Assembly: GCF_964355755.1 (NCBI RefSeq)
Contig: NC_092673.1
Span: 25,045,648 to 25,109,647 of the forward strand
Direction of reading: 5' to 3'
Source: Antedon mediterranea
Taxonomy: Eukaryota > Animalia > Echinodermata
DNA: 64,000 nt
The position numbers were made by a program, and so were the translations under genes. The notes beneath the pieces were generated by a model. The model saw only the letters and a program-made list of their open reading frames with translations. It was not told the origin of the DNA and ran no database searches. Positions 9,301 through 64,000 of this stretch are shown here, piece after piece; within the stretch, counting starts at the first letter, position 1, and the number at the start of each line of letters is the position of its first letter.

Positions 9301-11927
9301 GGAGACACAACCGTTTCTACCTCCGGGTACAACGTGGTAGACGTGTCCGTTATGTCCGTGTAAACTACAGAAGACGTGGTGGTAGATTGTATTACTATTA
9401 TGGAGGAAGATGGAGAATTATCACCCGCTTTATAAGAAAAGGAAGATGGGTAAGCTGGCGGCACTTTAGAGTACGCATCACCTACCGAGTATGTTGGAGA
9501 CACAACCGTTTTTACCTCCGGGTACAACGTGGTAGACGTGTCCGTTATGTCCGTGTAAACTACAGAAGACGTGGTGGTAGATTGTATTACTATTATGGAG
9601 GAAGATGGAGAATTATCACCCGCTTCATAAGAAAAGGAAGATGGGTAAGCTGGCGTCACTTTAGAGTACGCGTCACCTACAGAGTATGTTGGAGACACAA
9701 CCGTTTCTACCTCCGGGTACAACGTGGTAGACGTGTCCGTTATGTCCGTGTAATCTACAGAAGACGTGGTGGTAGATTGTATTACTATTATGGTGGAAGA
9801 TGGAGAATTATCACCCGCTTCATAAGAAAAGGAAGATGGGTAAGCTGGCGTCACTTTAGAGTACGCGTCACCTACAGAGTATGTTGGAGACACAACCGTT
9901 TCTACCTCCGGGTACAACGTGGTAGACGTGTCCGTTATGTCCGTGTAAACTACAGAAGACGTGGTGGTAGATTGTATTACTATTATGGAGGAAGATGGAG
10001 AATTATCACCCGCTTCATAAGAAAAGGAAGATGGGTAAGCTGGCGCCACTTTAGAGTACGCATCACCTACCGAGTATGTTGGAGACACAACCGTTTTTAC
10101 CTCCGGGTACAACGTGGTAGACGTGTCCGTTATGTCCGTGTAAACTACAGAAGACGTGGTGGTAGATTGTATTACTATTATGGAGGAAGATGGAGAATTA
10201 TCACCCGCTTCATAAGAAAAGGAAGATGGGTAAGCTGGCGCCACTTTAGAGTACGCGTCACCTACAGAGTATGTTGGAGACACAACCGTTTCTACCTTCG
10301 AGTACAACGTGGTAGACGTGTCCGTTATGTCCGTGTAAACTACAGAAGACGTGGTGGTAGATTGTATTACTATTATGGAGGAAGATGGAGAATTATCACC
10401 CGCTTCATAAGAAAAGGAAGATGGGTAAGCTGGCGCCACTTTAGAGTACGCGTCACCTACAGAGTATGTTGGAGACACAACCGTTTCTACCTACGGGTAC
10501 AACGTGGTAGACGTGTCCGTTATGTCCGTGTAAACTACAGAAGACGTGGTGGTAGATTGTATTACTATTATGGTGGAAGATGGAGAATTATCACCCGCTT
10601 CATAAGAAACGGAAAATGGGTAAGCTGGCGCCACTTTAGAGTACGCATCACCTACAGAGTATGTTGGAGACACAACCGTTTCTACCTCCGGGTACAACGT
10701 GGTAGACGTGTCCGTTATGTCCGTGTAAACTACAGAAGACGTGGTGGTAGATTGTATTACTATTATGGAGGAAGATGGAGAATTATCACCCGCTTCATAA
10801 GAAAAGGAAGATGGGTAAGCTGGCGCCACTTTAGAGTACGCATCACCTACAGAGTATGTTGGAGACACAACCGTTTCTACCTCCGGGTACAACGTGGTAG
10901 ACGTGTCCGTTATGTCCGTGTAAACTACAGAAGACGGGGTGGTAGATTGTATTACTATTATGGTGGAAGATGGAGAATTATCACCCGCTTCATAAGAAAC
11001 GGAAAATGGATAAGCTGGCGCCACTTTAGAGTACGCATCACCTACAGAGTATGTTGGAGACACAACCGTTTCTACCTTCGAGTACAACGTGGTAGACGTG
11101 TCCGTTATGTCCGTATAAACTACAGAAGACGTGGTGGTAGATTGTATTACTATTATGGAGGAAGATGGAGAATCCTTACCCGCTACAGAATAAACGGAAG
11201 ATGGGTAAGCTGGCGTCACTTTAGAGTACGCACCACCTACAGAGTATGTTGGAGACACAACCGTTTCTACCTCCGGGTACAACGTGGTAGTCGTGTCCGT
11301 TATATCCGTGTAAACTACAGAAGACGTGGTGGTAAATTGTATTACTATTATGGTGGAAGATGGAGAATCTTTACCCGCTACATAAGAAACGGCAAATGGG
11401 TAAGCTACCGATATCGCTTTACACATAACTCTAAAGTATTACAAAGGTATACCATTTGTTGGAGGCACGGCCATTTCTATCTTCAAATAAGATATGGTTT
11501 AAGTACCCGTTATGTCCGTGTAAACTACAGAAGACGTGGTGGTAAATTGTATTACTATTATGGTGGAAGATGGATAATCTTTACCCGCTACAGAAGAAAC
11601 GGTAAATGGGTAAGCTGTTCAAGCTTTCGAGTAAGTAGTTCAAGTCACACAGTTCACCACCACCACTATTACGGCACCCACGTAAGCCACTATCACCACT
11701 ATTCAAGCCACGGCTTCAGCTCAAGCAGCAGCTCAAGTGGAGGGTCCCACGTAATCCACCACTCTTCCAGTCACGGTTCCAGCTCAAGCGGAGGCTTTCA
11801 CAGTTCTGGTGGTTCAAGCTTTTCTTCGGGCGGCAGCGGCGGTGGTCACTCCTCAACTTCGACTCATACCGTTCACACTTCCGGTGGTGGAACGGTCGTC
11901 ACTACAACAACATATCATCACTATTAG
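6375..11927 (+). CDS. Gene A: secreted 1850-aa Arg/Tyr/Trp-rich tandem-repeat protein
   Basis: Real start is ATG 6375 after the acceptor. Signal peptide MSWIRIALFSILVVLAVRG, acidic pro-region, CC + Arg/Cys/Val tract, ~22 65-aa repeats, Ser/Gly/His tail; AATAAA at 12014. Confidence 0.9.
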   Translation: MSWIRIALFSILVVLAVRGQSVENDQNDVNLVSRPDVNLERKSDSRPDISLSEKEQPLVASPPLNIIDSEGTDKVRACCRRRRVRRCRRCRRRCHRCRRRRCRCRRRVVRRRCRRRVVRRRCRRRIVRRRCRRRVVRRRRCRRRRVCCRYRLFRRRGAYYLRIQCGRRVRVVRVRCRRRGGRFYYYFGGRWRLAGGVRRIRCSYRLFRRGNAYYLRIKCGRRVRVVRVRCRRRGARFYYYFGGRWRLAGRFRGRTTYRVCWRNNRFYIRIQCGRRVRYVRVNYRRRGGRLYYYYGGRWRIITRFIRNGKWVSWRHFRVRITYRVCWRHNRFYLRVQRGRRVRYVRVNYRRRGGRLYYYYGGRWRIITRFIRNGKWVSWRHFRVRITYRVCWRHNRFYLRVQRGRRVRYVRVNYRRRGGRLYYYYGGRWRIITRFIRNGRWVSWRHFRVRITYRVCWRHNRFYLRVQRGRRVRYVRVNYRRRGGRLYYYYGGRWRIITRFIRKGRWVSWRHFRVRITYRVCWRHNRFYLRVQRGRRVRYVRVNYRRRGGRLYYHYGGRWRIITRFIRNGKWVSWRHFRVRITYRVCWRHNRFYLRVQRGRRVRYVRVNYRRRGGRLYYHYGGRWRIITRFIRNGKWVSWRHFRVRITYRVCWRHNRFYLRVQRGRRVRYIRVNYRRRGGRLYYYYGGRWRIITRFIRKGRWVSWRHFRVRITYRVCWRHNRFYLRVQRGRRVRYVRVNYRRRGGRLYYYYGGRWRIITRFIRKGRWVSWRHFRVRVTYRVCWRHNRFYLRVQRGRRVRYVRVNYRRRGGRLYYYYGGRWRIITRFIRKGRWVSWRHFRVRVTYRVCWRHNRFYLRVQRGRRVRYVRVNYRRRGGRLYYYYGGRWRIITRFIRKGRWVNWRHFRVRITYRVCWRHNRFYLRVQRGRRVRYVRVNYRRRGGRLYYYYGGRWRIITRFIRKGRWVSWRHFRVRVTYRVCWRHNRFYLRVQRGRRVRYVRVNYRRRGGRLYYYYGGRWRIITRFIRKGRWVSWRHFRVRITYRVCWRHNRFYLRVQRGRRVRYVRVNYRRRGGRLYYYYGGRWRIITRFIRKGRWVSWRHFRVRVTYRVCWRHNRFYLRVQRGRRVRYVRVIYRRRGGRLYYYYGGRWRIITRFIRKGRWVSWRHFRVRVTYRVCWRHNRFYLRVQRGRRVRYVRVNYRRRGGRLYYYYGGRWRIITRFIRKGRWVSWRHFRVRITYRVCWRHNRFYLRVQRGRRVRYVRVNYRRRGGRLYYYYGGRWRIITRFIRKGRWVSWRHFRVRVTYRVCWRHNRFYLRVQRGRRVRYVRVNYRRRGGRLYYYYGGRWRIITRFIRKGRWVSWRHFRVRVTYRVCWRHNRFYLRVQRGRRVRYVRVNYRRRGGRLYYYYGGRWRIITRFIRNGKWVSWRHFRVRITYRVCWRHNRFYLRVQRGRRVRYVRVNYRRRGGRLYYYYGGRWRIITRFIRKGRWVSWRHFRVRITYRVCWRHNRFYLRVQRGRRVRYVRVNYRRRGGRLYYYYGGRWRIITRFIRNGKWISWRHFRVRITYRVCWRHNRFYLRVQRGRRVRYVRINYRRRGGRLYYYYGGRWRILTRYRINGRWVSWRHFRVRTTYRVCWRHNRFYLRVQRGSRVRYIRVNYRRRGGKLYYYYGGRWRIFTRYIRNGKWVSYRYRFTHNSKVLQRYTICWRHGHFYLQIRYGLSTRYVRVNYRRRGGKLYYYYGGRWIIFTRYRRNGKWVSCSSFRVSSSSHTVHHHHYYGTHVSHYHHYSSHGFSSSSSSSGGSHVIHHSSSHGSSSSGGFHSSGGSSFSSGGSGGGHSSTSTHTVHTSGGGTVVTTTTYHHY
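7126..11415 (+). repeat. Coding tandem repeat, 195 bp x 22 (degenerate units on both sides)
   Basis: TTAGAGTACG recurs at 7321, 7516, 8101 ... 11221 (exact multiples of 195); first variant unit at 7126. Confidence 0.95.
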
Positions 11928-15852: not shown

Positions 15853-17325
15853 ATGTCTTGGTTTCGGCTTGCCCTAACCGCTATTTTAGTTGTGTCGGCC
15901 TTAAGCGGCGAAACAGTAGAAAATGACAGAGAGAACGTTAACTCGGTTTCCCATCCTGAAATTAATCTGGAGAGTAAATCCGACAATCAATATGTTATCA
16001 GCTTGAGTGAAAAAGAGCAACCACTGGTAGTTTCCTCTTCTCAGAATATAATTAAATCTTACCACCAACACAATCGATTTAGAGTACGACATCATCGAAG
16101 TACATACTATGGTCTCAGCTTAAGTGAAAAAGAACAAAGACTGGCAGATTCCCTTCCTCAGAACATAATTAAATCTGAGGGAGCTGACAAAGTATTAGCT
16201 TGTTGTAGACATCGCAGATACCGCCACCACTACCATCACTATCACCATATCCACTACCACCACCACTATCATATTCACCACCACCACCACATCCACCATC
16301 ACTACATCCACCACTATCATGTCCATCACTACCACATCCACCACCACCACTATAACATTCACCACCATCACTACCACCACCACTATCATGTCTACCACCG
16401 CCATCGATTTAGAAGACGACGTCATCGACGTACAACCTATGGTCTCAGCTTAAGACAAAAACAACAAAGTCTGGCAGATTCCTTTCCTCAGAACACGATT
16501 AAATCTGAGGGAGCTGACAAAGTATCAGCTTGTTGTAGACGTCACAGAGTTCGTTGTAGACGATGCCACTACCACATCCACATTCACCACCACTACCACA
16601 TTCACCACCACTTCCACCATCACTACCACCGCCACCACCACCGGTGTCGTCGATATAGAAGACGACACCGTCGACGTAGAAGACGTATAGCACGCCGCCA
16701 ACGTAGAAGGCGAAGAAAACTCCGTCGCCGTAGAAGACGAATGGCACGCCGTCAACGTAGAAGACGAAGACGACATCATCGACGTAGAAAACGAATGGCA
16801 CGTCGTCAACGTAGAAGACGAAGACGACAGCATCGGCGTAGAAGACGAATTGCACGCCGTCAACGTAGAAGACGAAGACGACACCATCGACGTAGCAGAC
16901 GAATGGCACATCGTCTACATAGAAGACGAAGACGACAGCATCGGCGTAGAAGACGAATAGCACGCCGTCAACGTAGAAGACGAAGACGACACCATCGACG
17001 TAGAAGACGAATAGCACGCCGTCAAAATAGAAGACGAAGACGACACAATCGACGTAGAAAACGAATAGCACGCCGTCAACGTAGAAGACGAAGACGACAC
17101 TGTCGACGTAGAAGACGGATAGCACGCCGTCTACGTAGAAGAGGAGTATATTGGAGACACAACCATTTCTACATTCGAGTACTATGTGGTAGACATGCTC
17201 ATTATGTTAGCATAAACTCCAGGAGACGTGGTGGTAGATTGTTTTATTTTTATGGTGGAAAATGGAGATTTTTTACTCGCTACAGAAGAAAAGGAATATG
17301 GATAACCTGCCCAAGATCAGGTTAA
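15853..17325 (+). CDS. Gene B: secreted 490-aa His-rich / poly-Arg protein
   Basis: ATG after TTTCAG AACT. Signal peptide MSWFRLALTAILVVSALSG, two spacer+CC-His modules, 8 x 18-aa Arg repeat, one C-terminal copy of the 65-aa-type domain. Confidence 0.88.
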   Translation: MSWFRLALTAILVVSALSGETVENDRENVNSVSHPEINLESKSDNQYVISLSEKEQPLVVSSSQNIIKSYHQHNRFRVRHHRSTYYGLSLSEKEQRLADSLPQNIIKSEGADKVLACCRHRRYRHHYHHYHHIHYHHHYHIHHHHHIHHHYIHHYHVHHYHIHHHHYNIHHHHYHHHYHVYHRHRFRRRRHRRTTYGLSLRQKQQSLADSFPQNTIKSEGADKVSACCRRHRVRCRRCHYHIHIHHHYHIHHHFHHHYHRHHHRCRRYRRRHRRRRRRIARRQRRRRRKLRRRRRRMARRQRRRRRRHHRRRKRMARRQRRRRRRQHRRRRRIARRQRRRRRRHHRRSRRMAHRLHRRRRRQHRRRRRIARRQRRRRRRHHRRRRRIARRQNRRRRRHNRRRKRIARRQRRRRRRHCRRRRRIARRLRRRGVYWRHNHFYIRVLCGRHAHYVSINSRRRGGRLFYFYGGKWRFFTRYRRKGIWITCPRSG

Positions 17326-20300
17326 ACTGCAAGATGAATTTTCTTTTTAATTCAAAACTACCGATATAAATAAAATGTGCATTGAGTAAAATTACCGATA
17401 ACATTATTCTCTGTACATAATCAATGTTATACAAATTACATTCTCTTATTGAATAATAAATCTAAATACGAATATTATCACTAATCTTTTATTGTTTTAA
17501 CTCGTTTTGTTGTCTGACCAGTTTTATCCTTATGCTGATTATCCTGTTTACAGTTGTAGTGAATTGATAAACATTATTACACTACAAATCTATATTTAGA
17601 GTAACCATGAGGTGATTTTGGTATTGACACAGAGGGACAGGTGTAAGGTCCTATTGTTTTTTAAAACTATAATTGGCTGAATCACGATTTAAAAGAATAT
17701 GTGTGGTTTAATCATTTACAGTACCCAAATGACTGCAATTTAATTGTTAAGTTCAAAGTATGGAGCCTGCAAAGTAATATTTTCATTAAAGTAGAGTGTT
17801 CGGACTGTTTTGTTAATTATCAGTAACATTAAATCAATCAGTGTGTCCAAAGCAAAAGTTGAAATGGACTAAGGGTATGTTCAGACCTACGGAGTTATGC
17901 TTTCGTATCACAGCCAAGGTCATATTTTAATGAGCGTCGTAAGAGCAAAGTGTTCAGATTCATTGCAACGAAGTTGCGTTACAAACGGATATGATGTCAC
18001 TCGCTGGCGATTAATCAAACTCTAACGCACGCATAGACCTACCTTCGTTGTTATTAAAAGTAGTAGTGGTTGGTTTAGGAGTTACAGGCCTAGACCAAAC
18101 ACTTGGGCTCGGCATTATCGATTGGTTGTCAGGCATACCAACCAGCCGATCGTTTTGGGGTTTGGGTTTATATTTGGTCTATGACCTAAAATATCATTTA
18201 TGGCAGAAAAATGTTCAAATCCCGTACTTGCACCGGCTCCAGATTTATTTACTCGGTCTTTCACCGCTATACGACGACCCCTTCAATTTCGTTTGGATAT
18301 TAAATCCTTCTTTAATATGAGGATGGCATGACTTGGTTATACTGATGGGTGTGATAAATGTTTATTTATTAGTTCCGTGACCGTAAGAATAACGACTTTT
18401 GCATAAATTATTCGATAATTCTATTTAATTGAATATTCTATAAGTTTGAGAGAATTGTTTGTAGAGTATAAATCGACTAGGACTCTTGCCTTTCCAGTGA
18501 GAAACGTCGATTTGACTTCGTTCGCTGCGTAACCAGATATTGTATAATCACCTACACTTTAATTGGTTGATTTCGTATCACATGCGGCTAACTATTAGTT
18601 CTCCATGTTAAAAGTTATATTTACCTCGCCAAGGAGTTTATGTTTAATGGTTCTTTACAGGCAGCTTTTTATAGAAATGTTTAGATTCTTGTGATACGAG
18701 AGGCTGGTAACTTTTGCGCGCTATAAAGACAACATGTAGTGCCGTTAATAACTATTTCTAATCATCCCTGGCCAAAATTGAAGGGATACACTTTTTAATG
18801 TCATAGACTTCGACATGGATTAAAGATGGAAAATCGGTGTAATTGAATAACAGTTTACTTTCGACCAGCAGGTGTTTGAAAAACAACTAATTTTTTTAAT
18901 TCATTGAAATCGGTTTCCATTTGTGCATACTTTTATTTTGATTTGTAATGCATGATATGGACATTCGTAATGTCCCTTTAATCAACTTGTATTGTCTTTT
19001 AAATTGTGATTTTATAAACGAATAAAAAAAGTTACACGTGAGTGTGGGGGTCAGTGAGTGAGCATACACATGCGCGACAAAAGGCTGCTTGTCATATATA
19101 TTTCATATTTTCGCCATTCCACTCAAAAACATTCATTATCTGTACCATTCCACTCAAAAACATTCATTACAATATACGTTACAATTCGGTACAATCTGTT
19201 CCCTAAAATGGTATATTTATATATTTCTTTCAGAACCATGTCTTGGTTTCGGCTTGCACTGACCGCTATTTTAGTTGTGTCGGCCTTAAGCGGCGAAACA
19301 GTGGAAAATGACAGAGAGAAAGTTAACTCGGTTTCTCATCCTGAAATTAATTTGGAGAGTAAATCCTACAATCAACATGTTATCAGTTTGAGTGAAAAAG
19401 AACAACCATTGGTAGTTTCCTCTTCTCAGAATATAATTGATTCTGAAGGAACTGACAAAGTAAGAGCTTGCTGTAGACGTCGCAGAGTACGTCGATGCAG
19501 ACGATGCCGCCGCCGATGTCGTCGGTGTAGAAGACGACGCTGTCGATGTAGAAGACGAGTAGTACGCCGTCGATGTAGAAGACGAGTAGTACGCCGTCGA
19601 TGTAGAAGACGAGTAGTACGCCGTCGATGTAGAAGACGAAGAGTGTGCTGTCGTTATCGACTGTTCCGACGACGAGGCGCCTACTATCTCCATATAAAAT
19701 GTGGTAGGCGTGTTCGTGTAGTACGTGTAAGATGCCGAAGACGTGGTGCAAGGTTTTATTATTACTTTGGTGGAAGATGGAGGTTAGCTGGAGGACTAAG
19801 AGTACGCACCACGTACAGAGTATGTTGGAGAAACAACCGTTTCTACCTTCGAGTACAATGTGGTAGACGTGTCCGTTATGTCCGTGTAAACTACAAAAGA
19901 CGTGGTGGTAGACTGTATTACTATTATGGTGGAAGATGTAGAATTATCACCCGCTACAGAATACACGGAAGATGGGTAAGCTGGCGTCATTTTAGAGAAC
20001 CCATTACCTATAGAGTGTGTTGGAGACACAACCGTTTTTACCTCCGGGTACAACGTGGTAGACGTGTCCGTTATGTCCGTGTAAACTACAGAAGACGGCG
20101 TGGTAGATTGTATTACTTTATGGTGGACGATGGAGAATTATCATCCGATACATAAGAAACGGAAGATGGGTAAGCTGGCGTCACTTTAGAGTACCCATCA
20201 CCTATAGAGTGTGTTGGAGACACAACCGTTTCTACCTTCGAGTACAATGTTGTAAACGTGTCCGTTATGTCCGTGTAAACTACAGAAGACGGCGTGGTAG

Positions 20301-21341
20301 ATTGTATTACTATTATGGTGGAAGATGGAGAATTATCACCCGCTACAGAATAAACGGAAGATGGGTAAGCTGGCGTCACTTTAGAGTACCCATCACTTAC
20401 ACAGAGTTTGCTGGAGACACAACCGTTTCTACCTTCGAGTACAACGTGGTAGACGTGTCCGTTATGTCGGTATAAACTACAGAAGACGTCGTGGTAGATT
20501 GTATTACTATTATGGTGGAAGATGGAGAAATATCACCCGCTACAGAATAAACGGAAGATGGGTAAGCTGGCGTCACTTTAGAGTACCCATCACTTACAGA
20601 GTGTGCTGGAGACACAACCGTTTCTACCGTCGAGTACAGCGTGGTAGACGTGTCCGTTATGTGGGTGTAAACTACAGAAGACGTCGTGGTAGATTGTATT
20701 ACTATTATGGAGGAAGATGGAGAATTATCACCCGCTACATAAGAAAAGGAAGATGGGTAAGCTGGCGTCACTTTAGAGTACTCATCACCTATAGAGTGTG
20801 TTGTAGACACAACCGTTTCTACCACGTCCACCACTATCACATTCACCACCAACACTACCACCACCACTATCATGTCCACCACCGCCATCGATTTAGAAGA
20901 CGACGTCGTCGAAGTACATACTGTGGTCTCAGCTTAAATGAAAAAGAACAAAGACTGGCAGATTCCCTTCCTCAGAACATAATTAAATCTGAAGGAGCTG
21001 ACAAAGTATTAGCTTGTTGTAGACGTCGCAGACACCACCACCGCCACCACCAACACTTCGGCTTCCATCTCCAAATTCACCACCACTACCAATACAATGG
21101 TCTCAGCTTAAGTGAAAATGAACAAAGCCTGGCAGATTCTCTTCCTCAGAACATAATTAAATCTGAAAGAGCTGACAAAGTATTAGCTAGTTGCAGATGT
21201 GGCAGATTACGTAGAAGACGAAGACGGCATAGAAGACGAATAGCACGCCGTCAACGTAGAAGACGAAGACGAAACCGTCGACGTAGAAGACGGATAGCAC
21301 GCCGTCTACGTAGAAGACGAGTATATTGGAGACACAACCAT

Positions 21342-24300
21342 TAGTCCAAGAGCATTAGTTCATAAGTATAGGCAGACCCGGACATTTCTGGTAACAAGCT
21401 AATTTTTTCAGGAAAGGTCCAGAACTATGATTGGAACATCATACTAAAAGTCCTGAAAAATCCTCCTTGTGCTCTCCGAGAAATTCAAGATGGCGTCCAA
21501 AATGGTTGCCATTTTAATTAGTCTATAACTTTGTAACCGCTTGTCGTAGAGTATTGATTTTGGTGTCAAATAGTTCACAGTATATACATTCCTATTTGCT
21601 CTAACAGAAAATTTTGTAAAAAAATGGCTGCTACTACAGTTTCTGGTAGTATGACCTTTGACCTGGTCTTATCATATCTCGGTAATGGCTTGTCATAGAG
21701 AATTAAGATTAGGCCCAAATTGTTCAGAACATGCATATTTATATTTGGTGTAATAAAATATTTTATCTCAAAATGACCGGAAGTGAGGTTATTGACCTCT
21801 TATTGACCTATTCAAATATATTTTACCGTATCTCAAGAAATATTTACCGTATAACGTTACTTTTGGTGTCAAATTGTTTGGAACATATACATTTCTATTT
21901 AGTCTAATACAAAAGTTTTCCCTAAAATGCTCGGAAGTAAGTTAAATTATTGAACATTTTAAAAATCAAAGAGCTGCATAGGCAGAGTATATGAATACTG
22001 TAGATAAAATCAAAAACAACATTTTAACTCTGCCTTAAAACATGTTTTTGGCGTAGTACATCATCAGGTAAAGTGAATTGTTACAAAAAGAAAATATAAA
22101 GTCAATAAATTACAAAGAACAACTGTCAGTGGCTAATCAAAGTTGGTTAAGTAAGCAAAAGACAATTGGAAAATAGCTATGTACATGGCACATATCCGGA
22201 TTGTAAAAAACAAATGTCAAAGACCCTTTATCTGCAATACGATGTCGGTTGGTAAACACTAACTCATATTCATATTTTTTCGTTATTTTTACACTGGATG
22301 TTAATACTTGGAGGCAAATATAAATGTTTTTAAACATTTTTCAAATTTTTTTAACATTTTCAGCAATTTCGGTCGGTTGGTCAGTTAGTAAACACTAACT
22401 CATATTCATATTTTTCCGTTATTTTGACACTCGATATTAATATGTTTTTAAACATTTTAAAACATTTTTAAACATTTTCAGCAATTTCGGTTAGTCGGTC
22501 GGTCGGTAAAGACTAACTCATATTCATATTTTTTCGTTATTTTGACAGTGGATATTAATACTTGGAGGAAAATATACATGTTTTAAAATTTTATCAACAT
22601 TTTCAAACATTTCCACCAATTTCGGTCGGTTGGTCGGTCGGTAGGTTGGTCGGTAGTTCAGTAAACAATAACTCAAATTTGCACACGCGCATGCAGCCAT
22701 GTATATGGACTGACTTATTAAAAATAATGCATTTTGAAACATTACTTGTTTTAAATGTTCGTTATATGGTTTATTTATGAAAAAAAGAGAATGTACCCTA
22801 GGTATTTCGCATCAAACACCCTTTACCAAGCATGCATAGACTTTTTTTTCAGATTCAGATTTTATTTGGTACTTGTGGAAATCCATGAAAAAATAGATTG
22901 AAAGACGCAGGCAATGATCCCGGTACCTCTACTAAGTGAGTGCTCTATCATTTGAGCTAGTCCCCCAGTTACATATTTAACTGTTTAAAGATGAAAAAAT
23001 GATCGCCATTTGCCTTTTATAGGATTTATTATATATTGAAAATAATGCAAAATAAGGGTCTTTAAATCTCTGTAACATTGATCAGCAGCATTCTGTTACA
23101 GTCATTCATCATCTGATGTTGCATCTTCAACAACTTGGTGTTTGTTGCTTTTTTCACATCATTATCATGTTCATCTGTAGGTGTTGTTGCATGTTTGCCC
23201 AAAACAGTTATGACGTTAATTTGTTTTCATCTTTAAACAGTTAAAAGGTGAAAGTCTAGGCTTGCCAGTTAGAGAACATTCAAGGGTGCATTCTCTTTTA
23301 AAACAAGGAATGACCTGGTTTCCTGTTTTAAAATACATTATTTTTACAAATAAAATGGTCTTTACATTTGTTTCTGACAATCCTGAGTATAATATATGCC
23401 ATGTACATACTGTAGTGTTTGCCAATTGGGCATTTTCATGCGAAATGTATATGACCTGAACATTTCATTTTCACAGTATCATAAAGTCTATACATTTCCT
23501 AATTACATAAAAGTTATACTTTTATGAACAAAAATAATAAAATAACAAAAACAACGACGTGATTTCAACAAAGCACTAATTCGCGTATATAACGTGAGTT
23601 AAAGACGAATAAAGCATTTAAAATGTATTCATGACATCTACATATGGGTGACATTTTGCAGCAATAACATTTCAACCATAACTAGTATGAGAATTTACGT
23701 TTCCCTGTTTTTAGTTCATGTCCATTTTTTGTAACAAGTGTTACCGATATTCTTTGTTCTATCAAAGTAAAATTTACCCTCAAGGTTATCGTTGAAAACA
23801 ACAAAACACTCTTCAACTACCCAATAAAATGTAACGCTTGTTGTGGAATAACACTTTTTTTTTTTAAATTAACCAACTTAGTTATTGACTATGCAGCTCT
23901 TTGATTTGTTTAATTTTTAATAATTTAATTTACTTTCGAGTATTTTAGGGCAAAATGTTGTATTAGACCAAATAGAAATGTATATGTTCCAAACAATTTG
24001 ACACCAAAAGTAACGCTATACGATAAATATTTCTTGAGATACGGTAAAAGATATATGAATAGGTCAATAAGAGGTCAATAACCTCACTTCCGGTCATTTT
24101 GGGATAAAATATTTCATTACACCAAATAAAAATATGCATGTTCTGAACAATTTGGGCCTAATCCCAATTTTCTATGATAAGCCATTACCGAGATATGATA
24201 ATACCAGGTCAAAGGTCAAACTGCCAGAAACTGCAGTAGCGACCATTTTTTGACAAAATTTTCTGTTAGAGTAAATAGGAATGTATATATCGTGAACTAT

Positions 24301-38991: not shown

Positions 38992-41900
38992 ATGTTTTGG
39001 TTTCGGCTTGCCCTGACCGCTATTTTAGTTGTGTCGGCCTTAAGCGGCGAAACAGTGGAAAATGACAGAGAGAGAGTTAAAGAGAACGTTAACGAGGTTT
39101 CCCATCCTGAAATTTATTTGGAGAGTAAATCCGACAATCAACATGTTATCAGATTGAGTGAAAAAGAACGACCAATGGTAGTTTCCTTTCCTCAGAACAT
39201 AATTAAATCTGTCCTCCACCGCAATCGATTTAGAGTACGACATCGTCGAAGTACATACTATGGTCTCAGCTTAAGTGAAAAAGAACAAAGAGTGGCAGAT
39301 TCCCTTCCTCAGAACATAATTAAATCGGAAGGAGCTAACAAAGTATTAGCTTGTTGTAGACGTCACAGATACCACCACCACTACTACCATCACCATATCC
39401 ACCACCACCACCACTACCACATCCACCATCACCACGTTCACCACCACCACTACCACATCCACCGCCACCACCACATTCACCACCACCACTACCACTACCA
39501 CCACTATCATGTCCACCACCGCCATCGATTTAGAAGACGACGTCGTCGAAGTACATACTGTGGTCTCAGCTTAAGTGAAAAAGAACAAAGACTGGCAGAT
39601 TCCCTTCCTCAGAACATAATTAAATCTGAAGGAGCTGACAAAGTATTAGCTTGTTGTAGACGTCACAGATACCACCACTACCATCACCACCATATCCACC
39701 ACCACCACCACCACCACTATCACATTCACCACCATCACTACCACATCCATCACCACCACCACCACTATCACATCCATCACCACCACTATCACATTCACCA
39801 CCACCACTACCACCACCACTATCATGTCCACCACCCTCGTCGATTTTGTAGACGGCATCGTCGAAGTACATACTATGGTCTCAGCTTAAGTGAAAAAGAC
39901 CAAAGACTGGCAGATTCCAAAACAATTAAATCTGAAAGAGCTGACAAAGTATTAGCTTGTTGTAGACGTCACAGAGTGCATTGCAGACGATACCACCACC
40001 GACACCACATTTACCACCACTTTCACCATCACCACCACTACCACCACCGCTATCATGTCCTCCACCGCCATCGATTTAGTAGACGGCGTCGTCGAAGTAC
40101 ATATTATGGTCTCAGCTTAGGTGAAAATGAACAAAGACTGGCAGATTCACTTCCTCAGAACATAATTAAATCTGAAGGGGCTGACAAAGTATTAGCTTGT
40201 TGTAGACGTCACAGATACCACCACCACCACTACCATCACCATATCCACCACCACCACCACCACTATCACATTCACCACCACCACCACATCTACCACATCC
40301 ACTATCACCACATTCACAACCACCACTACCACATCCACCACCACGACCACCACTATCACATTCACCACCACTACCACCACCACTATCATGTCAACCGCCA
40401 TCGATGTAGAAGACGACGTCGTCGAAGTACATACTGTGGTCTCAGCTTAAGTGAAAAAGAACAAAGACTGGCATATTCCCTTCCTCAGAACATAATGAAA
40501 TCTGAAGGAGCTGACAAAGTATTAGCTTGTTGTAGACGTCACAGATACCACCACCACCACCACTACCATCACCATATCCACCACCACCACCACCACTATC
40601 ACATTCACCACCACCACTGCAACATCCACCATCACCACCACCACCACCACCACCACTATCACATCCACCACCACCACTATCACATTCACCACCACTACCA
40701 CCACCGCTATCATGTCCTCCACCACCATCGATTTAGTAGACGGCGTCGTCGAAGAACATATTATGGTCTCAGCTTAGGTGAAAAAGAACAAAGACTGGCA
40801 GATTCCCTTCTCCAGAACATAATTAAATCTGAAGAGGCTGACAAAGTATTAGCTTGTTGTAAACGTCACAGATACCACCACCACCACTACCATCACCATA
40901 TCCACCACCACCACCACCACTATCACATTCACCACCACCACCACAACTACCACATCCACTATCACCACACTCACAACCACCACTACCACATCCACCACCA
41001 CCACCACCACTATTACATTCACCACCACTACCACCACCACTATCATGTCCACCGCCATCGATTTAGAAGACGACGTCGTCGAAGTACATACTGTGGTCTC
41101 AGCTTAAATGAAAAAGAACAAAGACTGGCATATTCCCTTCCTCAGAACATAATTAAATCTGAAGAAGCTGACAAAGTTTTAGCTTGTTGTAGACGTCACA
41201 GATACCACCACCACTACTACCATCGCCATATACACCACCACCACCACTATCACATTCACCACCACCAATACCACATCCACCATATTCACCATCACCACTA
41301 CCAAATCCACCACCACCACTACCACATTCACCACCACCACTACCACCACTATCATGTCCACTACCGCCATCGATTTAGAAGACGACGTCGTCGAAGTACA
41401 TACTGTGGTCTCAGCTTAAGTGAAAAAGAACAAAGACTGGCAGATTCCCTTCCTCAGAACATAATTAAACCTGAAGGACCTGACAAAGTATTAGCTTGTT
41501 GTAGACATCACAAAGTGCATTGCAGACGATACCACCACCGCCATCATTATCACCACCACCACCACTATCACATTCACCATCACCACTACTACATCCATCA
41601 CCACATCCACCACCACCACATTCACCACCACTACCACCACCACCACTATCATGTCCACCGTCGCCATCGATTTAGAAGACGGCGTCGTCGAAGTACATAC
41701 TATGGTCTCAGCTTAAGTGAAAAAGAACAAAGATTGACAGATTCCCTTCCTCAGAACATAATTAAATCTGAAGGAGCTGACAAAGTATTAGCTTGTTGTA
41801 TATGTGGCAAAATACGTAGAATACGAAGACGACATAGAAGACGAAAAGCACGCCGTCAACGTAGAAGACGAAGACGACACTGTCAACATAGAAGACGAGT

Positions 41901-42078
41901 ATATTGGAGACACAACCATTACTACCTTCGAGTACTATGTGGTGGACACGCTCATTATGTTAGCATAAACTCCAGGAGGCGTGGTGGTAGATTGTATTAT
42001 TATTATGGTGGAAGATGGAGAATCTTTACCCGCTACAGAAGAAACGGAATATGGATAACTTGCCCAAGATCGGTTTAA
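38992..42078 (+). CDS. Gene D: secreted 1028-aa poly-His modular protein (8 His modules)
   Basis: Signal peptide MFWFRLALTAILVVSALSG; nine KVLACC spacers, eight followed by His/Tyr/Ile tracts ending in an Arg run; terminal Arg tract and one 65-aa-type domain; intact ORF. Confidence 0.9.
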   Translation: MFWFRLALTAILVVSALSGETVENDRERVKENVNEVSHPEIYLESKSDNQHVIRLSEKERPMVVSFPQNIIKSVLHRNRFRVRHRRSTYYGLSLSEKEQRVADSLPQNIIKSEGANKVLACCRRHRYHHHYYHHHIHHHHHYHIHHHHVHHHHYHIHRHHHIHHHHYHYHHYHVHHRHRFRRRRRRSTYCGLSLSEKEQRLADSLPQNIIKSEGADKVLACCRRHRYHHYHHHHIHHHHHHHYHIHHHHYHIHHHHHHYHIHHHHYHIHHHHYHHHYHVHHPRRFCRRHRRSTYYGLSLSEKDQRLADSKTIKSERADKVLACCRRHRVHCRRYHHRHHIYHHFHHHHHYHHRYHVLHRHRFSRRRRRSTYYGLSLGENEQRLADSLPQNIIKSEGADKVLACCRRHRYHHHHYHHHIHHHHHHYHIHHHHHIYHIHYHHIHNHHYHIHHHDHHYHIHHHYHHHYHVNRHRCRRRRRRSTYCGLSLSEKEQRLAYSLPQNIMKSEGADKVLACCRRHRYHHHHHYHHHIHHHHHHYHIHHHHCNIHHHHHHHHHHYHIHHHHYHIHHHYHHRYHVLHHHRFSRRRRRRTYYGLSLGEKEQRLADSLLQNIIKSEEADKVLACCKRHRYHHHHYHHHIHHHHHHYHIHHHHHNYHIHYHHTHNHHYHIHHHHHHYYIHHHYHHHYHVHRHRFRRRRRRSTYCGLSLNEKEQRLAYSLPQNIIKSEEADKVLACCRRHRYHHHYYHRHIHHHHHYHIHHHQYHIHHIHHHHYQIHHHHYHIHHHHYHHYHVHYRHRFRRRRRRSTYCGLSLSEKEQRLADSLPQNIIKPEGPDKVLACCRHHKVHCRRYHHRHHYHHHHHYHIHHHHYYIHHHIHHHHIHHHYHHHHYHVHRRHRFRRRRRRSTYYGLSLSEKEQRLTDSLPQNIIKSEGADKVLACCICGKIRRIRRRHRRRKARRQRRRRRRHCQHRRRVYWRHNHYYLRVLCGGHAHYVSINSRRRGGRLYYYYGGRWRIFTRYRRNGIWITCPRSV

Positions 42079-53597: not shown

Positions 53598-56500
53598 ATG
53601 TTTTGGCTTCGGCTTGCCCTGACAGCTATTTTAGTTGTGTCGGCCTTAAGCCGCGAAACAGTGGAAAATGACAGAGAGAGAGTTAAAGAGAACGTTAACT
53701 CGGTTTCCCATCCTGAAAATTATTTGGAGAGTAAATCCGACAATCAACATGTTATCAGATTGAGTGAAAAACAACGACCAATGGTAGTTTCCTTTTCTCA
53801 GAACATAATTAAATCTGTCCTCCACCGCAATCGATTTAGAGTACGACATCGTCGAAGTACATACTATGGTCTCAGCTTAAGTGAAAAAGAACAAAGAGTG
53901 GCAGATTCCCTTACTCAGAACATAATTAAATCGGAAGGAGCTGACAAAGTATTAGCTTGTTGTAGACGTCACAGATACCACCTCCACTACTACCATCACC
54001 ATATCCACCACCACCACTACCACATCCACCATCACCACGTTCACCACCACCACTACCACATCCACCGCCACCACCACATTCACCACCACCACTACCACTA
54101 CCACCACTATCGTGTCCACCACCGCCATCGATTTAGAAGACGACGTCGTCGAAGTACATACTGTGGTCTCAGCTTAAGTGAAAAAAAACGAAGACTGGCA
54201 GATTCCCTTCCTCAGAACATAATTAAATCTGAAGGAGCTGACAAAGTATTAGCTTGTTGTAGACGTCACAGATACTACCACCACCATCACCACCATATCT
54301 ACCACCACCACCACTATCACATTCACCACCACCACTACCACATCCACCATCACCACCACCACTATCACATCCACCACCACCACTATCATATTCACCACCA
54401 CCACTACCACCACCACCACTATCATGTCCACCACCGCCGTCGATTTAGTAGATGGCGTCGTCGAAGTACATACTATGGTCTCAGCTTAAGTGAAAAAGAC
54501 CAAAGACTGGCAGATTCCAAAACAATTAAATCTGAAGGAGCTGACAAAGTATTAGCTTGTTGTAGACGTCACAGAGTGCATTGCAGACGATACCACCACC
54601 GCCATCATTATCACCACCACCACCACCACTATTACATTCACCACCACCACTACTACATCCATCACCACATTTACCACCACTATCACATTCACCACCACTA
54701 CCACCACCGCTATCATGTCTTCCACCGCCATCGATTTAGTAGACGGCGTCGTCGAAGTACATATTATGGTCTCAGCTTAGGTGAAAAAGAACAAAGACTG
54801 GCAGATTCACTTCCTCAGAACATAATTAAATCTGAAAGGGCTGACAAAGTATTAGCTTGTTGTAGACGTCACAGATACCACCACCACCACTACCATCACC
54901 ATATCCACCACCACCACCACCACTATCACATTCACCACCACCATCACAACTACAAAATCCACTATCACCACATTCACAACCACTACTACCACATCCACCA
55001 CCACCACAATCACATTCACCACCACTACCACCACCACTATCATGTCCACCGCCATCGATTTAGAAGACGACGTCGTCGAAGTACATACTGTGGTCTCAGC
55101 TTAAGTGAAAAAGAACAAAGACTGGCATATTCCCTTCCTCAGAACATAATTAAATCTGAAGGAGCTGACAAAGTATTAGCTTGTTGTAGACGTCACAGAT
55201 ACCACCACCACCACTACCATCACCATATCCACCACCACCACCACCACTATCACATTCACCACCACCACTACCACATCCACCATCACCACCACCACCAACA
55301 CCACCACCACTATCACATCCACCACCATCACTATCACATTCACCACCACTACCACCACCGCTATCATGTCCTCCACCGCCATCGATTTAGTAGACGGCGT
55401 CGTCGAAGTACATATTATGGTCTCAGCTTAGGTGAAAAAGAACAAAGACTGGCAGACTCTCTTCCCCAGAACATAATTAAATCTGAAGGGGCTGACAAAG
55501 TATTAGCTTGTTGTAGACGTCACAGAAACCACCACTACCACTACCATCACCATATCCACCACCACCACCACCACCACCATCACCACTATCACATTCACCA
55601 CCACCACCACCACAACTACCACATCCACTATCACCACATTCACAACCACCACTACCACATCCACCACCACCACTATTACATTCACCACCACTATCATGAT
55701 CACCGCCATCGATTTAGAAGACGACGTCGTCGAAGTACATACTGTGGTCTCAGCTTAAGTGAAAAAGAACAAAGACTGGCATATTCCCTTCCTCAGAACA
55801 TAATTAAATCTGAAGGAGCTGACAAAGTATTAGCTTGTTGTAGACGTCACAGATACCACCACCACCACTACCATCACCATATCCACCACCACCACCACCA
55901 CTATCACATTCACCACCACCACTACCACATCCACCATCACCACCACCACCACCACCACTATCACATCCACCACCATCACTATCACATTCACCACCACTAC
56001 CACCACCGCTATCATGTCCTCCACCGCCATCGATTTAGTAGACGGCGTCGTCGAAGTACATATTGTGGTCTCAGCTTCGGTGAAAAAGAACAAAGACTGG
56101 CAGATTCCCTTCCCCAGAACATAATTAAATCTGAAGGGGCTGACAAAGTATTAGCTTGTTGTAGACGTCACAGAAACCACCACCACCACTACCATCACCA
56201 TATCCACCACCACCACCACCACCACCACCATCACCACTATCACATTTACCACCACCACCACAACTACCACATCCACTATCACCACATTCACAACCACCAC
56301 TACCACATCCACCACCACCACTATTACATTCACCACCACTATCATGATCACCGCCATCGATTTAGAAGACGACGTCGTCGAAGTACATACTGTGGTCTCA
56401 GCTTAAATGAAAAAGAACAAAGACTGGCATATTCCCTTCCTCAGAACATAATTAAATCTGAAGGAGCTGACAAAGTTTTAGCTTGTTGTAGACGTCACAG

Positions 56501-57377
56501 ATACCACCACCACTACTACCATCGCCATATCCACCACCACCACCACTATCACATTCACCACCACCAATACCACATCCACCATATTCACCACCACCACTAC
56601 CAAATCCACCACCACCACTACCACATTCACCACCACCACTACCACCACTATCATGTCCACCACCGCCATCGATTTAGAAGACGACGTCGTCGAAGTACAT
56701 ACTGTGGTCTCAGCTTAAGTGAAAAAGAACAAAGACTGGCAGATTCCCTTCCTCAGAACATAATTAAACCTGAAGGAACTGACAAAGTATTAGCTTGTTG
56801 TAGACATCACAAAGTGCATTGCAGACGATACCACCACCGCCATCATTATCACCACCACCACCACCACTATCACATTCACCACCACCACTACTACATCCAT
56901 CACCACCTCCAACACCACCACATTCACCACCACTACCACCACCACTATCATGTCCACCGTCGCCATCGATTTAGAAGACGGCGTCGTCGAAGTACATACT
57001 ATGGTCTCAGCTTAAGTGAAAAAGAACAAAGATTGACAGATTCCCTTCCTCAGAACATAATTAAATCTGAAGGAGCTGACAAAGTATTAGCTTGTTGTAT
57101 ATGTGGAAGAATACGTAGAATACGAAGACGACATAGAAGACGAAAAGCACGCCGTCAACGTAGAAGACGAAGACGACACTGTCAACATAGAAGACAAGTA
57201 TATTGGAGACACAACCATTACTACCTTCGAGTACTATGTGGTGGACACGCTCATTATGTTAGCATAAACTCCAGGAGGCGTGGTGGTAGATTGTATTATT
57301 ATTATGGTGGAAGATGGAGAATCTTTACCCGCTACAGAAGAAACGGAATATGGATAACTTGCCCAAGATCGGGTTAA
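53598..57377 (+). CDS. Gene E: secreted 1259-aa poly-His modular protein (10 His modules)
   Basis: Close paralogue of D; eleven KVLACC spacers; intact ORF; same C-terminal domain ending ITCPRSG. Confidence 0.9.
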   Translation: MFWLRLALTAILVVSALSRETVENDRERVKENVNSVSHPENYLESKSDNQHVIRLSEKQRPMVVSFSQNIIKSVLHRNRFRVRHRRSTYYGLSLSEKEQRVADSLTQNIIKSEGADKVLACCRRHRYHLHYYHHHIHHHHYHIHHHHVHHHHYHIHRHHHIHHHHYHYHHYRVHHRHRFRRRRRRSTYCGLSLSEKKRRLADSLPQNIIKSEGADKVLACCRRHRYYHHHHHHIYHHHHYHIHHHHYHIHHHHHHYHIHHHHYHIHHHHYHHHHYHVHHRRRFSRWRRRSTYYGLSLSEKDQRLADSKTIKSEGADKVLACCRRHRVHCRRYHHRHHYHHHHHHYYIHHHHYYIHHHIYHHYHIHHHYHHRYHVFHRHRFSRRRRRSTYYGLSLGEKEQRLADSLPQNIIKSERADKVLACCRRHRYHHHHYHHHIHHHHHHYHIHHHHHNYKIHYHHIHNHYYHIHHHHNHIHHHYHHHYHVHRHRFRRRRRRSTYCGLSLSEKEQRLAYSLPQNIIKSEGADKVLACCRRHRYHHHHYHHHIHHHHHHYHIHHHHYHIHHHHHHQHHHHYHIHHHHYHIHHHYHHRYHVLHRHRFSRRRRRSTYYGLSLGEKEQRLADSLPQNIIKSEGADKVLACCRRHRNHHYHYHHHIHHHHHHHHHHYHIHHHHHHNYHIHYHHIHNHHYHIHHHHYYIHHHYHDHRHRFRRRRRRSTYCGLSLSEKEQRLAYSLPQNIIKSEGADKVLACCRRHRYHHHHYHHHIHHHHHHYHIHHHHYHIHHHHHHHHHYHIHHHHYHIHHHYHHRYHVLHRHRFSRRRRRSTYCGLSFGEKEQRLADSLPQNIIKSEGADKVLACCRRHRNHHHHYHHHIHHHHHHHHHHHYHIYHHHHNYHIHYHHIHNHHYHIHHHHYYIHHHYHDHRHRFRRRRRRSTYCGLSLNEKEQRLAYSLPQNIIKSEGADKVLACCRRHRYHHHYYHRHIHHHHHYHIHHHQYHIHHIHHHHYQIHHHHYHIHHHHYHHYHVHHRHRFRRRRRRSTYCGLSLSEKEQRLADSLPQNIIKPEGTDKVLACCRHHKVHCRRYHHRHHYHHHHHHYHIHHHHYYIHHHLQHHHIHHHYHHHYHVHRRHRFRRRRRRSTYYGLSLSEKEQRLTDSLPQNIIKSEGADKVLACCICGRIRRIRRRHRRRKARRQRRRRRRHCQHRRQVYWRHNHYYLRVLCGGHAHYVSINSRRRGGRLYYYYGGRWRIFTRYRRNGIWITCPRSG

Positions 57378-60893: not shown

Positions 60894-61138
60894 CATATGG
60901 CGAAAGTAAACACTCTGGTTGTTTTCGACCTTTTTCAACATTATAATGTTTATATGTATGGAATGTTTAATAAACAAAACAAAATGATAATACTTCAATA
61001 GCAGGTTCAAGTTTTAAGACCACCCGTATAATAAAAAAAAATCGTATGAAGCAAGCTATATAAACGGCAAAAACATATTGCCACTTAATTAGTTTTTGGT
61101 CGTCAAAATTATTCTTAGCAGAGCGACAGTATATCAAG
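60894..61138 (+). promoter_or_regulatory. Gene F promoter and non-coding exon 1
   Basis: CATATG 60894, TAAACAC ~60907, TATATAAA 61057-61064, AAG|GTAAGA at 61139; intron to TTACAG 62498. Confidence 0.72.
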
Positions 61139-62502
61139 GTAAGAAAAAATAATCTGTTTTTATATCTCGTCATTAGTTCTAATCGACGCTAAAAGTTCTA
61201 TTTTTATTGATTTTATTACATGGCACTTTCAAAACCCGTAAACCTGTGGTGTGGGACGTCTATAACTTTTCAATTCTCCGCGGCCAAAATATGAGCGGTA
61301 ATTTTTTTAATGACCGAGCCCTTGGCATTAATCAAATATAAAAAAAAAATGAATAAATGTTTTCAAATCAGGAAAAAAAAAAACATTCCAAAATACCGTT
61401 ATATAATACAAACAGAATGGTCACACTACGGTATGCAATTTGGTGTCACTTAAATATGTGTTAAAATTATAATTATTATTATTTCTTCGAGAAGTTTTTA
61501 AATTCACAGTATATGGCGGATATGGCAACTCTGATAATTCGATACTATTCCGTGGTAATAGACTCATTGCAGCTAGTAATCATTATATTATTTTAACGAG
61601 ACGAGCTCAAGTTTAATATTGAATATCGAAACGTGGCAGGCTATAGGCGCTTGCTTGACCTTTGACAGGATCGCCTAAAATTTATAATTTAAAACTACGA
61701 TACTTACTGTATATTCATGAATAGCCGCTTCATAGTCTCTTTGCTTTTCTTCCTTATATCTTATTCTTATTAACTCAAAATTATTTATACTAAGAAACAT
61801 TACTATTTATATGCCTAGTGTGTAAACATTATTGACATAATTTCATTAAACATCCACATAAAGTACAACTCTTCTTAACAATTTTTTTTTCAATCTTCTA
61901 TCAACTAAAAGTCGTAGTTAGTCATGTCTCGGGTCACATTCTATGGTCACCGTACATATAGGCTACTACTTCAGTACTTCTATGAATGGATGACAATAGT
62001 TGGTGACAAGAACGCTAGTTGGTCATACTCAGTACCGTTTTGATTTTACGATCATTCGGGAAATCGCCTCAAAACGGGGAAAAGCAATAGATTTGAAAAG
62101 AATAGAAAATGCTGCAATCCTTTCGAAGTTAACTTCGACACAACTCTATGACGTAGACATTTAGTTGACTAATCACCACTAGCTACATCTCAGGTGGTAC
62201 AATGAATCGCACAATAAATTCTAAACCGCCCGGTGAAATACTGATATATGTATAATTATATAAATCCAAAGGCAAATTACTGAAAAAATGTCAGTGGCTG
62301 GATCTCAACAGAGATAAAAAAAAAAAAAGCAAAAAGCTAAATCAAAACGATAAAGTAAAACAGCCCTTCATATATATATATATAATATATATATATATAT
62401 ATAATATATATGATAAAAAATACTGTCCTTTTTAGACACAATATCAATAGAGAACTACGGTACAATTCGTTCAATACAATTTGTAAATTTCTTTACAGAA
62501 CT

Positions 62503-64000
62503 ATGTCTTGGCTTGGGCTTACCATGTTCGCTATTTTAGCTGTGTCAGCCGTAAGAGGCAGAGCAGTGAAGAGTAAATCCGAAAGTAGACCTGATATCAG
62601 CTTGAGTGAAAAAGAACATCCACTGGTTAATTTCCCTCCTCGGCAAATAATTGATTCTGAAGCCGAAAGCAGCTTGAGTGAAAAAGAACAGCCATTAGCT
62701 GATTTCCCTCCTCGGGAAATAATTGATTCTGAAGCCGAAAGCAGCTTGAGTGAAAAAGAACATCCACTGGTTAATTTCCCTCCTCGGCAAATAATTGATT
62801 CTGAAGCCGAAAGCAGCTTGAGTGAAAAAGAACAGCCATTAGCTGATTTCCCTCCTCGGGAAATAATTGATTCTGAAGCAGCCGAAAGCAGCTTGAGTGA
62901 AAAAGAACGGCCATTAGCTGATTTCCCTCCTCGGGAAATAATTGATTCTGAAGCCGAAAGCAGCTTGAGTGAAAAAGAACATCCACTGGTTAATTTCCCT
63001 CCTCGGCAAATAATTGATTCTGAAGCCGAAAGCAGCTTGAGTGAAAAAGAACAGCCATTAGCTGATTTCCCTCCTCGGGAAATAATTGATTCTGAAGCCG
63101 AAAGCAGCTTGAGTGAAAAAGAAAAGCCACTAGGTGATTTCCCTCCTCAGGAAATAATTGATTCTGAAGCTGAAAGCAGCTTGAGTGAAAACGAAGAGCC
63201 ATTAGCTGATTTCCCTCCTCAGGAAATAATTGATTCTGAAGCAGCCGAAAGCAGCTTGAGTGAAAAAGAACGGCCATTAGCTGATTTCCCTCCTCGGGAA
63301 ATAATTGATTCTGAAGCCGAAAGCAGCTTGAGTGAAAATGAAAAGCCACTAGCTGATTTCCCTCCTCGGGAAATAATTGATTCTCAAGCCGAAAGCAGCT
63401 TGAGTGAAAAAGAACAGTCACTAGCTGATTTCCCTCCTCGAGAAATAATTGATTCTGAAGCCGAAAGCAGCTTGAGTGAAAATGAAAAGCCACTAGCTGA
63501 TTTCCCTCCTCGGGAAATAATTAATTCTGAAGCCGAAAGCAGCTTGAGTGAAAAAGAACGGCCATTAGCTGATTTCCCTCCTCGGGAAATAATTGATTCT
63601 GAAGCCGAAAGCAGCTTTAGTGAAAAAGAACAACCATTAGCTGATTTCCCTCCTCGGGAAATAATTGATTCTGAAGCCGAAAGCAGCTTGAGTGAAAAAG
63701 AACAACCATTAGCTGATTTCCCTCCTCGGGAAATAATTGATTCTGAAGCCGAAAGCAGCTTGAGTGAAAAAGAACAGCCACTAACTGATTTCCCTCCTCA
63801 GGAAATAATTGATTCTGAAGCAGCCGAAAGCAGCTTGAGTGAAAAAGAACGGCCATTAGCTGATTTCCCTCCTCGAGAAATAATTGATTCTGAAGCCGAA
63901 AGCAGCTTGAGTGAAAATGAAAAGCCACTAGCTGATTTCCCTCCTCGGGAAATAATTGATTCTGAAGCCGAAAGCAGCTTGAGTGAAAAAGAACAGTCAC
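62503..64000 (+). CDS. Gene F (3'-partial): secreted protein with ~19 acidic 24-aa repeats
   Basis: Manual translation MSWLGLTMFAILAVSAVRGRAVKSKSESRPDI(SLSEKEQPLADFPPREIIDSEAES)n; 72/75-bp units; no stop seen before the window end, and the ORF track omits it. Confidence 0.88.
   Translation, partial: MSWLGLTMFAILAVSAVRGRAVKSKSESRPDISLSEKEHPLVNFPPRQIIDSEAESSLSEKEQPLADFPPREIIDSEAESSLSEKEHPLVNFPPRQIIDSEAESSLSEKEQPLADFPPREIIDSEAAESSLSEKERPLADFPPREIIDSEAESSLSEKEHPLVNFPPRQIIDSEAESSLSEKEQPLADFPPREIIDSEAESSLSEKEKPLGDFPPQEIIDSEAESSLSENEEPLADFPPQEIIDSEAAESSLSEKERPLADFPPREIIDSEAESSLSENEKPLADFPPREIIDSQAESSLSEKEQSLADFPPREIIDSEAESSLSENEKPLADFPPREIINSEAESSLSEKERPLADFPPREIIDSEAESSFSEKEQPLADFPPREIIDSEAESSLSEKEQPLADFPPREIIDSEAESSLSEKEQPLTDFPPQEIIDSEAAESSLSEKERPLADFPPREIIDSEAESSLSENEKPLADFPPREIIDSEAESSLSEKEQS

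Follow-up and report, generated by a model that had tools for sequence, protein, structure and literature searches.

A repeated, acidified spacer in the sixth gene of a polycationic cluster: a candidate counter-polyanion

The window analysed here, 64,000 nucleotides of Antedon mediterranea contig NC_092673.1, is AT-rich, animal-type DNA with many repeats, and it carries a tandem, + strand cluster of six paralogous genes in the order A, B, C, D, E, F. Their start codons lie at 6375 (A), 15853 (B), 19238 (C), 38992 (D), 53598 (E) and 62503 (F), each with a splice acceptor directly 5' of it. The five members upstream of F are as follows:

6375..11927, + strand: paralogue A, 1850 aa, net charge +568; one spacer (6522-6584), then about 25 Arg/Tyr/Trp beta-hairpin modules
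15853..17325, + strand: paralogue B, 490 aa, net charge +150; His-rich and Arg-rich blocks and one terminal beta module
19238..21344, + strand: paralogue C, broken; frameshifted, without TATA or intact donor, C-terminal module split
21342-24517: 3.2-kb insertion in paralogue C with 610-nt inverted arms (94%); it splits the last module, whose remnant begins at 24518
38992..42078, + strand: paralogue D, 1028 aa, net charge +122, 31% His; nine near-neutral spacers and a terminal beta module
53598..57377, + strand: paralogue E, 1259 aa, net charge +151, 32% His; 11 near-neutral spacers and a terminal beta module

The polycationic members contain 6-11% Tyr, and net charge per residue reaches +0.31 in A and +0.32 in B. 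A beta module stands at or near the C-terminus of all four intact paralogues (A, B, D and E), and C keeps its remnant. The module that has been amplified differs between paralogues (195-, 54-, ~330- and 72-bp units): a 65-aa Arg/Tyr/Trp module in A, an 18-aa Arg-rich one in B, spacer plus His-rich block in D and E, and the spacer alone in F. In A the roughly 25 copies of the 65-aa, Arg/Tyr/Trp/Gly module (6819-11633) are arranged head to tail without spacers and are followed by a low-complexity Ser/Gly/His/Thr-rich tail (11634-11927) that was not found in B, D or E. The beta module is modelled as a seven-strand hairpin meander (pLDDT 87.6), for which searches among known folds, choline-binding/CROP repeats for example, gave a best Foldseek E of 0.95 and a best VIA Z of 3.2 among 48,161 chains; it may be the cluster's more distinctive orphan domain. 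D and E arose by a recent duplication (93% alike across 5.5 kb) and have polyprotein-like repeats of spacer, His block and poly-Arg, with poly-Arg-then-ST junctions ahead of the spacers (six in D, ten in E). A His- and Tyr-rich composition is the pattern of metal- or DOPA-cured materials, and D and E are possible metal-binding hardening proteins. Upstream of each, within the duplicated block, lies a 136-bp tandem repeat of 4.4 copies (34417-35022 and 49150-49824). A reverse-strand ORF over A (7113-10490) and short ones over F were taken as repeat shadows, not genes.

Other elements share the window with the cluster. An intact L1/Tx1-like endonuclease/reverse transcriptase ORF of 1266 aa (44624-48424) lies between D and E; among the 120 matches listed, the best relatives of its reverse transcriptase region are 48-60% identical, and the list includes Mytilus (mussel) at 43% and Paramuricea (octocoral) at 41%. 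A near-perfect 7.2-kb palindrome at 27217-34376 (arms 93% alike overall, short central loop, without a long ORF) could be either a fold-back element or an artefact of assembly. The window has no Rfam matches.

The sixth paralogue, F, runs off the downstream edge of the window, and its features are these:

61055..61065, + strand: TATA box, motif GCTATATAAAC; one of five family copies, aligned with those of the paralogues
61085..61138, + strand: predicted non-coding exon 1, its start placed from TATA spacing; homologous to exon 1 of A, B, D and E
61139..62498, + strand: predicted 5'-UTR intron, 1360 nt, with GT..AG ends placed as in the paralogues
~61593-62411, + strand: high-copy repeat pieces within the intron, and an (AT)n tract at 62370-62411 (from repeat depth and TRF)
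62503..62559, + strand: predicted signal peptide, aa 1-19 (hydropathy and homology); intact in a contig from organism B
62560..62598, + strand: short pro-stub, aa 20-32, by alignment; without ~17-21 aa present in A-E
62599..64000, + strand: acidic array, 19 complete units of 24/25 aa followed by a partial unit, with no end inside the window; disorder predicted

The original prediction described F as a hidden gene, missing from the ORF track and possessing a full promoter, an intron, an ATG and an A-like signal peptide. F is indeed absent from that track, but its hiddenness is an effect of the window edge: no stop codon occurs within the window, so the gene looked hidden, and the ORF appears once open ends are allowed. 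From 62503 to the end of the window the frame is stop-free for 499 aa (net charge of the whole stretch -86), and the other five frames across the array contain 4-81 stops. The predicted gene elements were all located. The TATA motif occurs exactly five times in the 64 kb when both strands are scanned, once ahead of each of A, B, D, E and F, and the donor motif C[A/C]AG|GTAAGAA likewise occurs exactly five times, ahead of the same genes; neither motif lies on the minus strand. The acceptor ends at 62498, ahead of the ATG at 62503, and the predicted exon 1 holds no upstream ATG. Besides TATA and donor, F and its paralogues have an upstream promoter motif in common, and when the promoter and exon 1 of F are compared with those of A, B and D in turn, the real score exceeds all 3000 shuffles each time. 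The TATA, exon 1, 5'-UTR intron and signal-like leader of the A-E family are all present in F. The signal peptide is predicted from a 19-aa hydrophobic leader with a hydropathy peak of 2.7 and from its homology to the leaders of A-E (45-46 of 57 nt identical to each). The pro part is nearest to that of A (85/102 nt), and no Cys occurs past residue 19 within the window.

Counted to the window end, the array consists of 19 complete 72-bp units and one 8-aa partial unit, in agreement with the predicted minimum of at least 19 copies, and the expectation that its indels would be in-frame and of 3 bp also held, with a single extra Ala codon in 3/19 units as the sole indel. The unit that had been quoted, with seven acidic and two basic residues, is the majority form, but it occurs exactly in just 3/19 units; across the array, units carry 5-8 acidic and 0-3 basic residues each. 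The array has a net charge of -87 over 459 aa, and in its unmodified form (f+ 0.09, f- 0.27, NCPR -0.18) F is a net-negative polyampholyte of only moderate anionic character; it would count as a dense polyanion only with phosphorylated serines. By calculation, about 124 unmodified units would be needed to balance one A chain, which corresponds to about 6.5 F chains of the length seen in the window, or about 2.4 were every Ser phosphorylated. Ser makes up 17% of the array, four per unit, while the charge is supplied by Glu/Asp; S-x-x-D/E motifs number 55, and S-x-E, the motif of the secretory kinase Fam20C, is found zero times. None of the 19 units contains an R-x-L, R-x-x-R or dibasic site. 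As F has no dibasic processing site within the window, the array would remain a single chain. A single-sequence AF2 model of 133 aa of F has no secondary structure (pTM 0.11), in line with the predicted disorder of the array.

Variation among the units, which are 94% alike on average, is indistinguishable from neutral. Five of 21 distinct site-alleles are synonymous against 4.2 expected, charge-changing variants run in both directions, and the probability of finding no stop in the array under neutrality is 0.37. Because the variants look neutral, the open frame is not proof of selection, and the combination of in-frame-only indels with an absence of stops is weak evidence for function.

The unit had been matched to the single spacer of A. 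That match stands, with 16/21 residues identical and a score reached by 0/20,000 shuffles, but A is not the sole counterpart: the spacer motif SLSEKE..II(D/K)SE of the A-E family, present in F, recurs in 26 spacer copies across A-E and is a mobile module of the family. In a midpoint-rooted tree of all 45 spacer cores (19 from F and 26 from A-E, 63-nt alignment), every F unit falls into a single clade (support 90.9/97) whose neighbours are the first spacers of A and C. The earliest branches under the midpoint root, with moderate support (52/84), are the three least acidic units (1, 3 and 6; net -3), which are nearer to the A spacer (53 of 63 nt vs 50.2 for the other units); the remaining 16 have gained two further acidic residues. 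Averaged over 21 aa, the spacers of F carry a net charge of -3.6 and those of A and C -3, against -0.5 in B, -0.56 in D and -0.09 in E. These relationships support descent of the F units from one A/C-type first spacer of the family and indicate that the acidity of the array is largely an F-specific gain, both as read from sequence comparison.

Parts of the stretch occur in ten public sequencing runs from three organisms, none of them registered as RNA, and we compared four of these (X1, X5, X8 and X10), treating gaps in their contig coverage as no evidence of absence. A 244-nt contig of X5, from organism B, spans the F leader and first unit with 13 differences, K23E among them, and no gap. With the leader unbroken in this contig, a second organism has an F orthologue whose start is preserved. 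X1 and X5 also contain a leader variant (aligned to 62479-62559) whose five listed differences fit none of A-F, and which likely marks a further, seventh paralogue outside the window in both organisms. In X1, four unit variants have a depth of 144-243 per copy when their counts in the window are used as divisor; the last unit type then comes by rough estimate to 23-45 copies, six of them in the window, which suggests that the window shows about half or fewer of the units. No exit from the array appeared in the listed loose contig ends (9 of 11), and no contig of the four runs shows exon 1 splicing of F.

X10 stands apart in the ratio of unit depth to intronic-repeat depth (11.9, vs 0.004 in X5, 0.013 in X1 and 0.029 in X8), and it has no coverage of the single-copy promoter and intron bins of F. 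It is probably RNA rich in F-type units, although its run type is unrecorded and expression is poorly gauged from contig depth. X10 also yields a 276-nt contig of an A orthologue, with 29/30 flank letters matching A; together with the unit depth, this is a hint that both types are transcribed in one sample. In the RNA-like runs X8 and X10, from two studies, the unit is covered and the F leader is not, whereas X1 and X5 continue through the leader, a weak hint that the abundant unit transcript may come from another unit-bearing paralogue and not from F.

Searches returned no confirmed relatives of the family. No homologue was found for the N-terminal 130 aa of F (7993 candidates) or, by profile, for the beta module (7988 candidates), and PDB sequences held none (best E 0.36). 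An ESM Atlas search with A had no match, exact look-ups of A, B, E and the reverse transcriptase in the protein collection gave 0/4, NCBIfam matched 0/3 proteins, and among JGI metagenome contigs none of 251 protein pattern matches was confirmed and the DNA pattern matched none. The sole match of an HMM search in 1.84 billion representatives, P0121, is a bacterial RTX/cadherin-type repeat protein with no passing stretch, and was rejected. Pfam gave three rows for F with no passing stretch in any (sums over repeats), and the rows Dynein_IC2, DUF5827, Phage-tail_3 and SAF were set aside as repeat-sum artefacts. Five family motifs were absent from the literature searched, most of it outside the subscription journals, and no paper on such a family was found there. 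Neither the family nor the route from linker to counter-ion was found in these searches, in which eukaryote proteins may be thinly covered; the chemistry of oppositely charged proteins is known.

The original prediction drew on defensins, in which an acidic pro-piece neutralises a cationic peptide. The alpha-defensin HNP-1 carries an anionic pro-segment that offsets, in cis, the charge of its 30-aa peptide (PMC11858525), and the resemblance is that of an acidic segment behind a signal peptide in a cationic secreted family. The analogy fails for this family. The HNP-1 pro-piece is described as single-copy, in cis and approximately matched to the charge of its 30-aa peptide (PMC11858525), whereas the family spacer is close to neutral in B, D and E, reaches 11 copies in one gene (E) and accompanies cationic parts of +119 to +573. 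Whole pro-regions against cationic parts come to -5/+573 in A, -2/+152 in B, +3/+119 in D and +4/+147 in E, so in none of the four does the pro-region balance the charge in cis. Nor was the small six-cysteine domain of a mature defensin found: F, A, B and E have no defensin Pfam match. Since the cis pro-regions are far too weak for the charge of A-E, we infer that a trans counter-ion of some kind would be needed. A role for F as that counter-ion is plausible from its sequence because F alone is net-acidic (-86), the other intact members being polycations (A +568, B +150, D +122, E +151).

Cement and mineral systems offer closer parallels. The cement protein Pc3 has a high Ser share; F is not a serine-dominated phosphoserine polyanion of that type, and no sequence link from F to Pc3 cement proteins was found. 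In the available account of the sandcastle worm, polycations are charge-balanced in granules by Pc3 and sulfated polyanions (PMC11277488), and Phragmatopoma/Sabellaria cement (Pc1/2/4/5 with Pc3) resembles the present family in its secreted, repetitive proteins of opposite charge, some of them His- or Tyr-rich (PMC11277488, PMC12817120). By this analogy F and A-E would most likely work like sandcastle-worm cement. There are differences: the charge of Pc3 is described as coming from phosphoserine (PMC11277488), whereas F is Glu/Asp/Pro-based with 17% Ser, and F, unlike the cement's polyanion, is paralogous to the polycations themselves. Diatom silacidins, as far as their source describes them, are likewise a repetitive, Asp/Glu/Ser-rich secreted precursor that serves as polyanion for polycation phase separation, but they are cleaved at RXL and pair with polyamines in silica formation (PMC4557024), unlike F, an animal protein with no dibasic site and no RXL release site in its units. 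F belongs to none of these three families (defensin pro-pieces, Pc3 and silacidins), and by analogy it likely works like the latter two. Fish polysialoglycoprotein (PSGP) and semenogelin, both secreted, disordered tandem-repeat proteins, came out of the Atlas with a feature score of 0.77 each, a lead only, this being below 0.8, a level that one third of shuffled proteins reach; unlike in F, the charge of PSGP is reported, in the text available, to come from polysialic acid (PMC3528131).

We lean, tentatively, towards F being an intact-looking paralogue whose acidified spacer array would form a disordered, secreted counter-polyanion co-packed with A-E, Pc3-like but unrelated to Pc3. A broader and more doubtful proposal is that a previously undescribed family made its own counter-polyanion, through gene duplication and amplification and acidification of a linker, to give a two-component coacervate from one cluster with one promoter type, the two charges going back to a common ancestor. 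To judge from the shared promoter, F would be expressed in the same gland cells as A-E, where it would condense with the Arg-rich chains by charge (complex coacervation) in secretory granules and keep the polycations soluble and harmless. Phosphorylation of the four serines per unit would perhaps raise its negative charge, and after release a glue, tube, capsule or hard part might set through His-metal and Tyr cross-links of A-E. F may also carry a terminal beta module, one copy of which would not flip its sign. The promoter motifs and donor that F shares with A-E argue for this counter-polyanion role, as do the further acid gains of 16 units, the leader kept in organism B, the unit depth in X10 and the sandcastle-worm precedent; neutral unit variation, an NCPR of -0.18, zero S-x-E sites and a leader uncovered in X8 and X10 argue against it. 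A sulfated polysaccharide is an equally good candidate for the counter-ion, by analogy with Pc2 and Pc5 in the sandcastle worm, with which sulfated polyanions are described as pairing (PMC11277488).

F could instead be a self-neutralising diblock in which the acidic array, as a giant pro-piece or block, masks in cis a long cationic stretch lying past the window edge, as the original prediction had also allowed. We consider this unlikely. It draws on the cationic beta module found at or near the C-terminus in 4/4 intact paralogues and, as a remnant, in C, on the kinship of the F pro part with A, whose spacer runs directly into a long cationic region, on the HNP-1 case as described (PMC11858525), and on the rough X1 allele depths, by which 23-45 copies of one unit type would let the gene extend far. 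Adding one terminal module like that of B, D or E, worth about +15 by its sequence, would still give F a strong negative charge, and only an A-sized array would balance it; moreover, A-E offer no record of cis neutralisation, and F has no dibasic release site within the window. It is also improbable, in our view, that the array is a by-product of unequal crossing-over, with F either tolerated or acting as a filler that binds ions and hydrates, and not specifically partnered with A-E. Such turnover would be at home in a cluster in which each paralogue has amplified a different module (195-, 54-, ~330- and 72-bp), D and E have recently duplicated and C has broken, and it would suit the neutral variation among units 94% alike. 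Against it stand the leader and frame kept in a second organism, the promoter and splice sites that F retains whereas C lost them, the amplification of the more acidic form of the unit, and the strong enrichment of the unit in RNA-like run X10.

A further possibility, which strikes us as quite improbable, is that A-E are host-defence precursors, with Arg-rich beta-hairpins and with His-rich peptides released at poly-Arg sites, and that F is either a decoy shielding host cells or quenching these products once released, or a releasing agent for a cationic adhesive. The six and ten poly-Arg-then-ST junctions of D and E recall the multipeptide precursors of hymenoptaecin and apidaecin, with their repeats of spacer and cationic unit and their Arg processing sites (PMC3415428), and mussel myticalins are Arg-rich and are described with a similarly placed intron, in the 5'-UTR just 5' of the ATG (PMC5577615). 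No Pfam sequence match links the present family to these, and the available portions of those sources describe no spacer-only member (PMC3415428, PMC5577615). For a releasing agent there is the negative molecule proposed, in the text available, to free the K/R-rich Mlig-ap1 of Macrostomum (PMC6410801), whereas the promoter shared by F and A-E would argue for the same cell and not for a separate releasing cell. The 65-aa modules of A, head to tail and without spacers, speak against defence precursors. So does a composition of 30% His and 9-11% Tyr, a better fit to metal- or DOPA-cured materials.

Glues and hard parts built from oppositely charged proteins are known, and in the cases compared here each of the two charges is supplied by a different kind of molecule. 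Should F prove to be a partner of A-E, module amplification inside one cluster would be a simple route to a second component. Were its expansion neutral, F would still illustrate clearly how repeats turn over in an orphan family of secreted proteins. The family is a new source of sequence-defined polyelectrolytes, among them a 65-aa Arg/Tyr/Trp beta-hairpin repeat, His-rich blocks and a 24-aa acidic unit. If the partnership is true, the origin of coacervation becomes testable across the three organisms that carry the locus.
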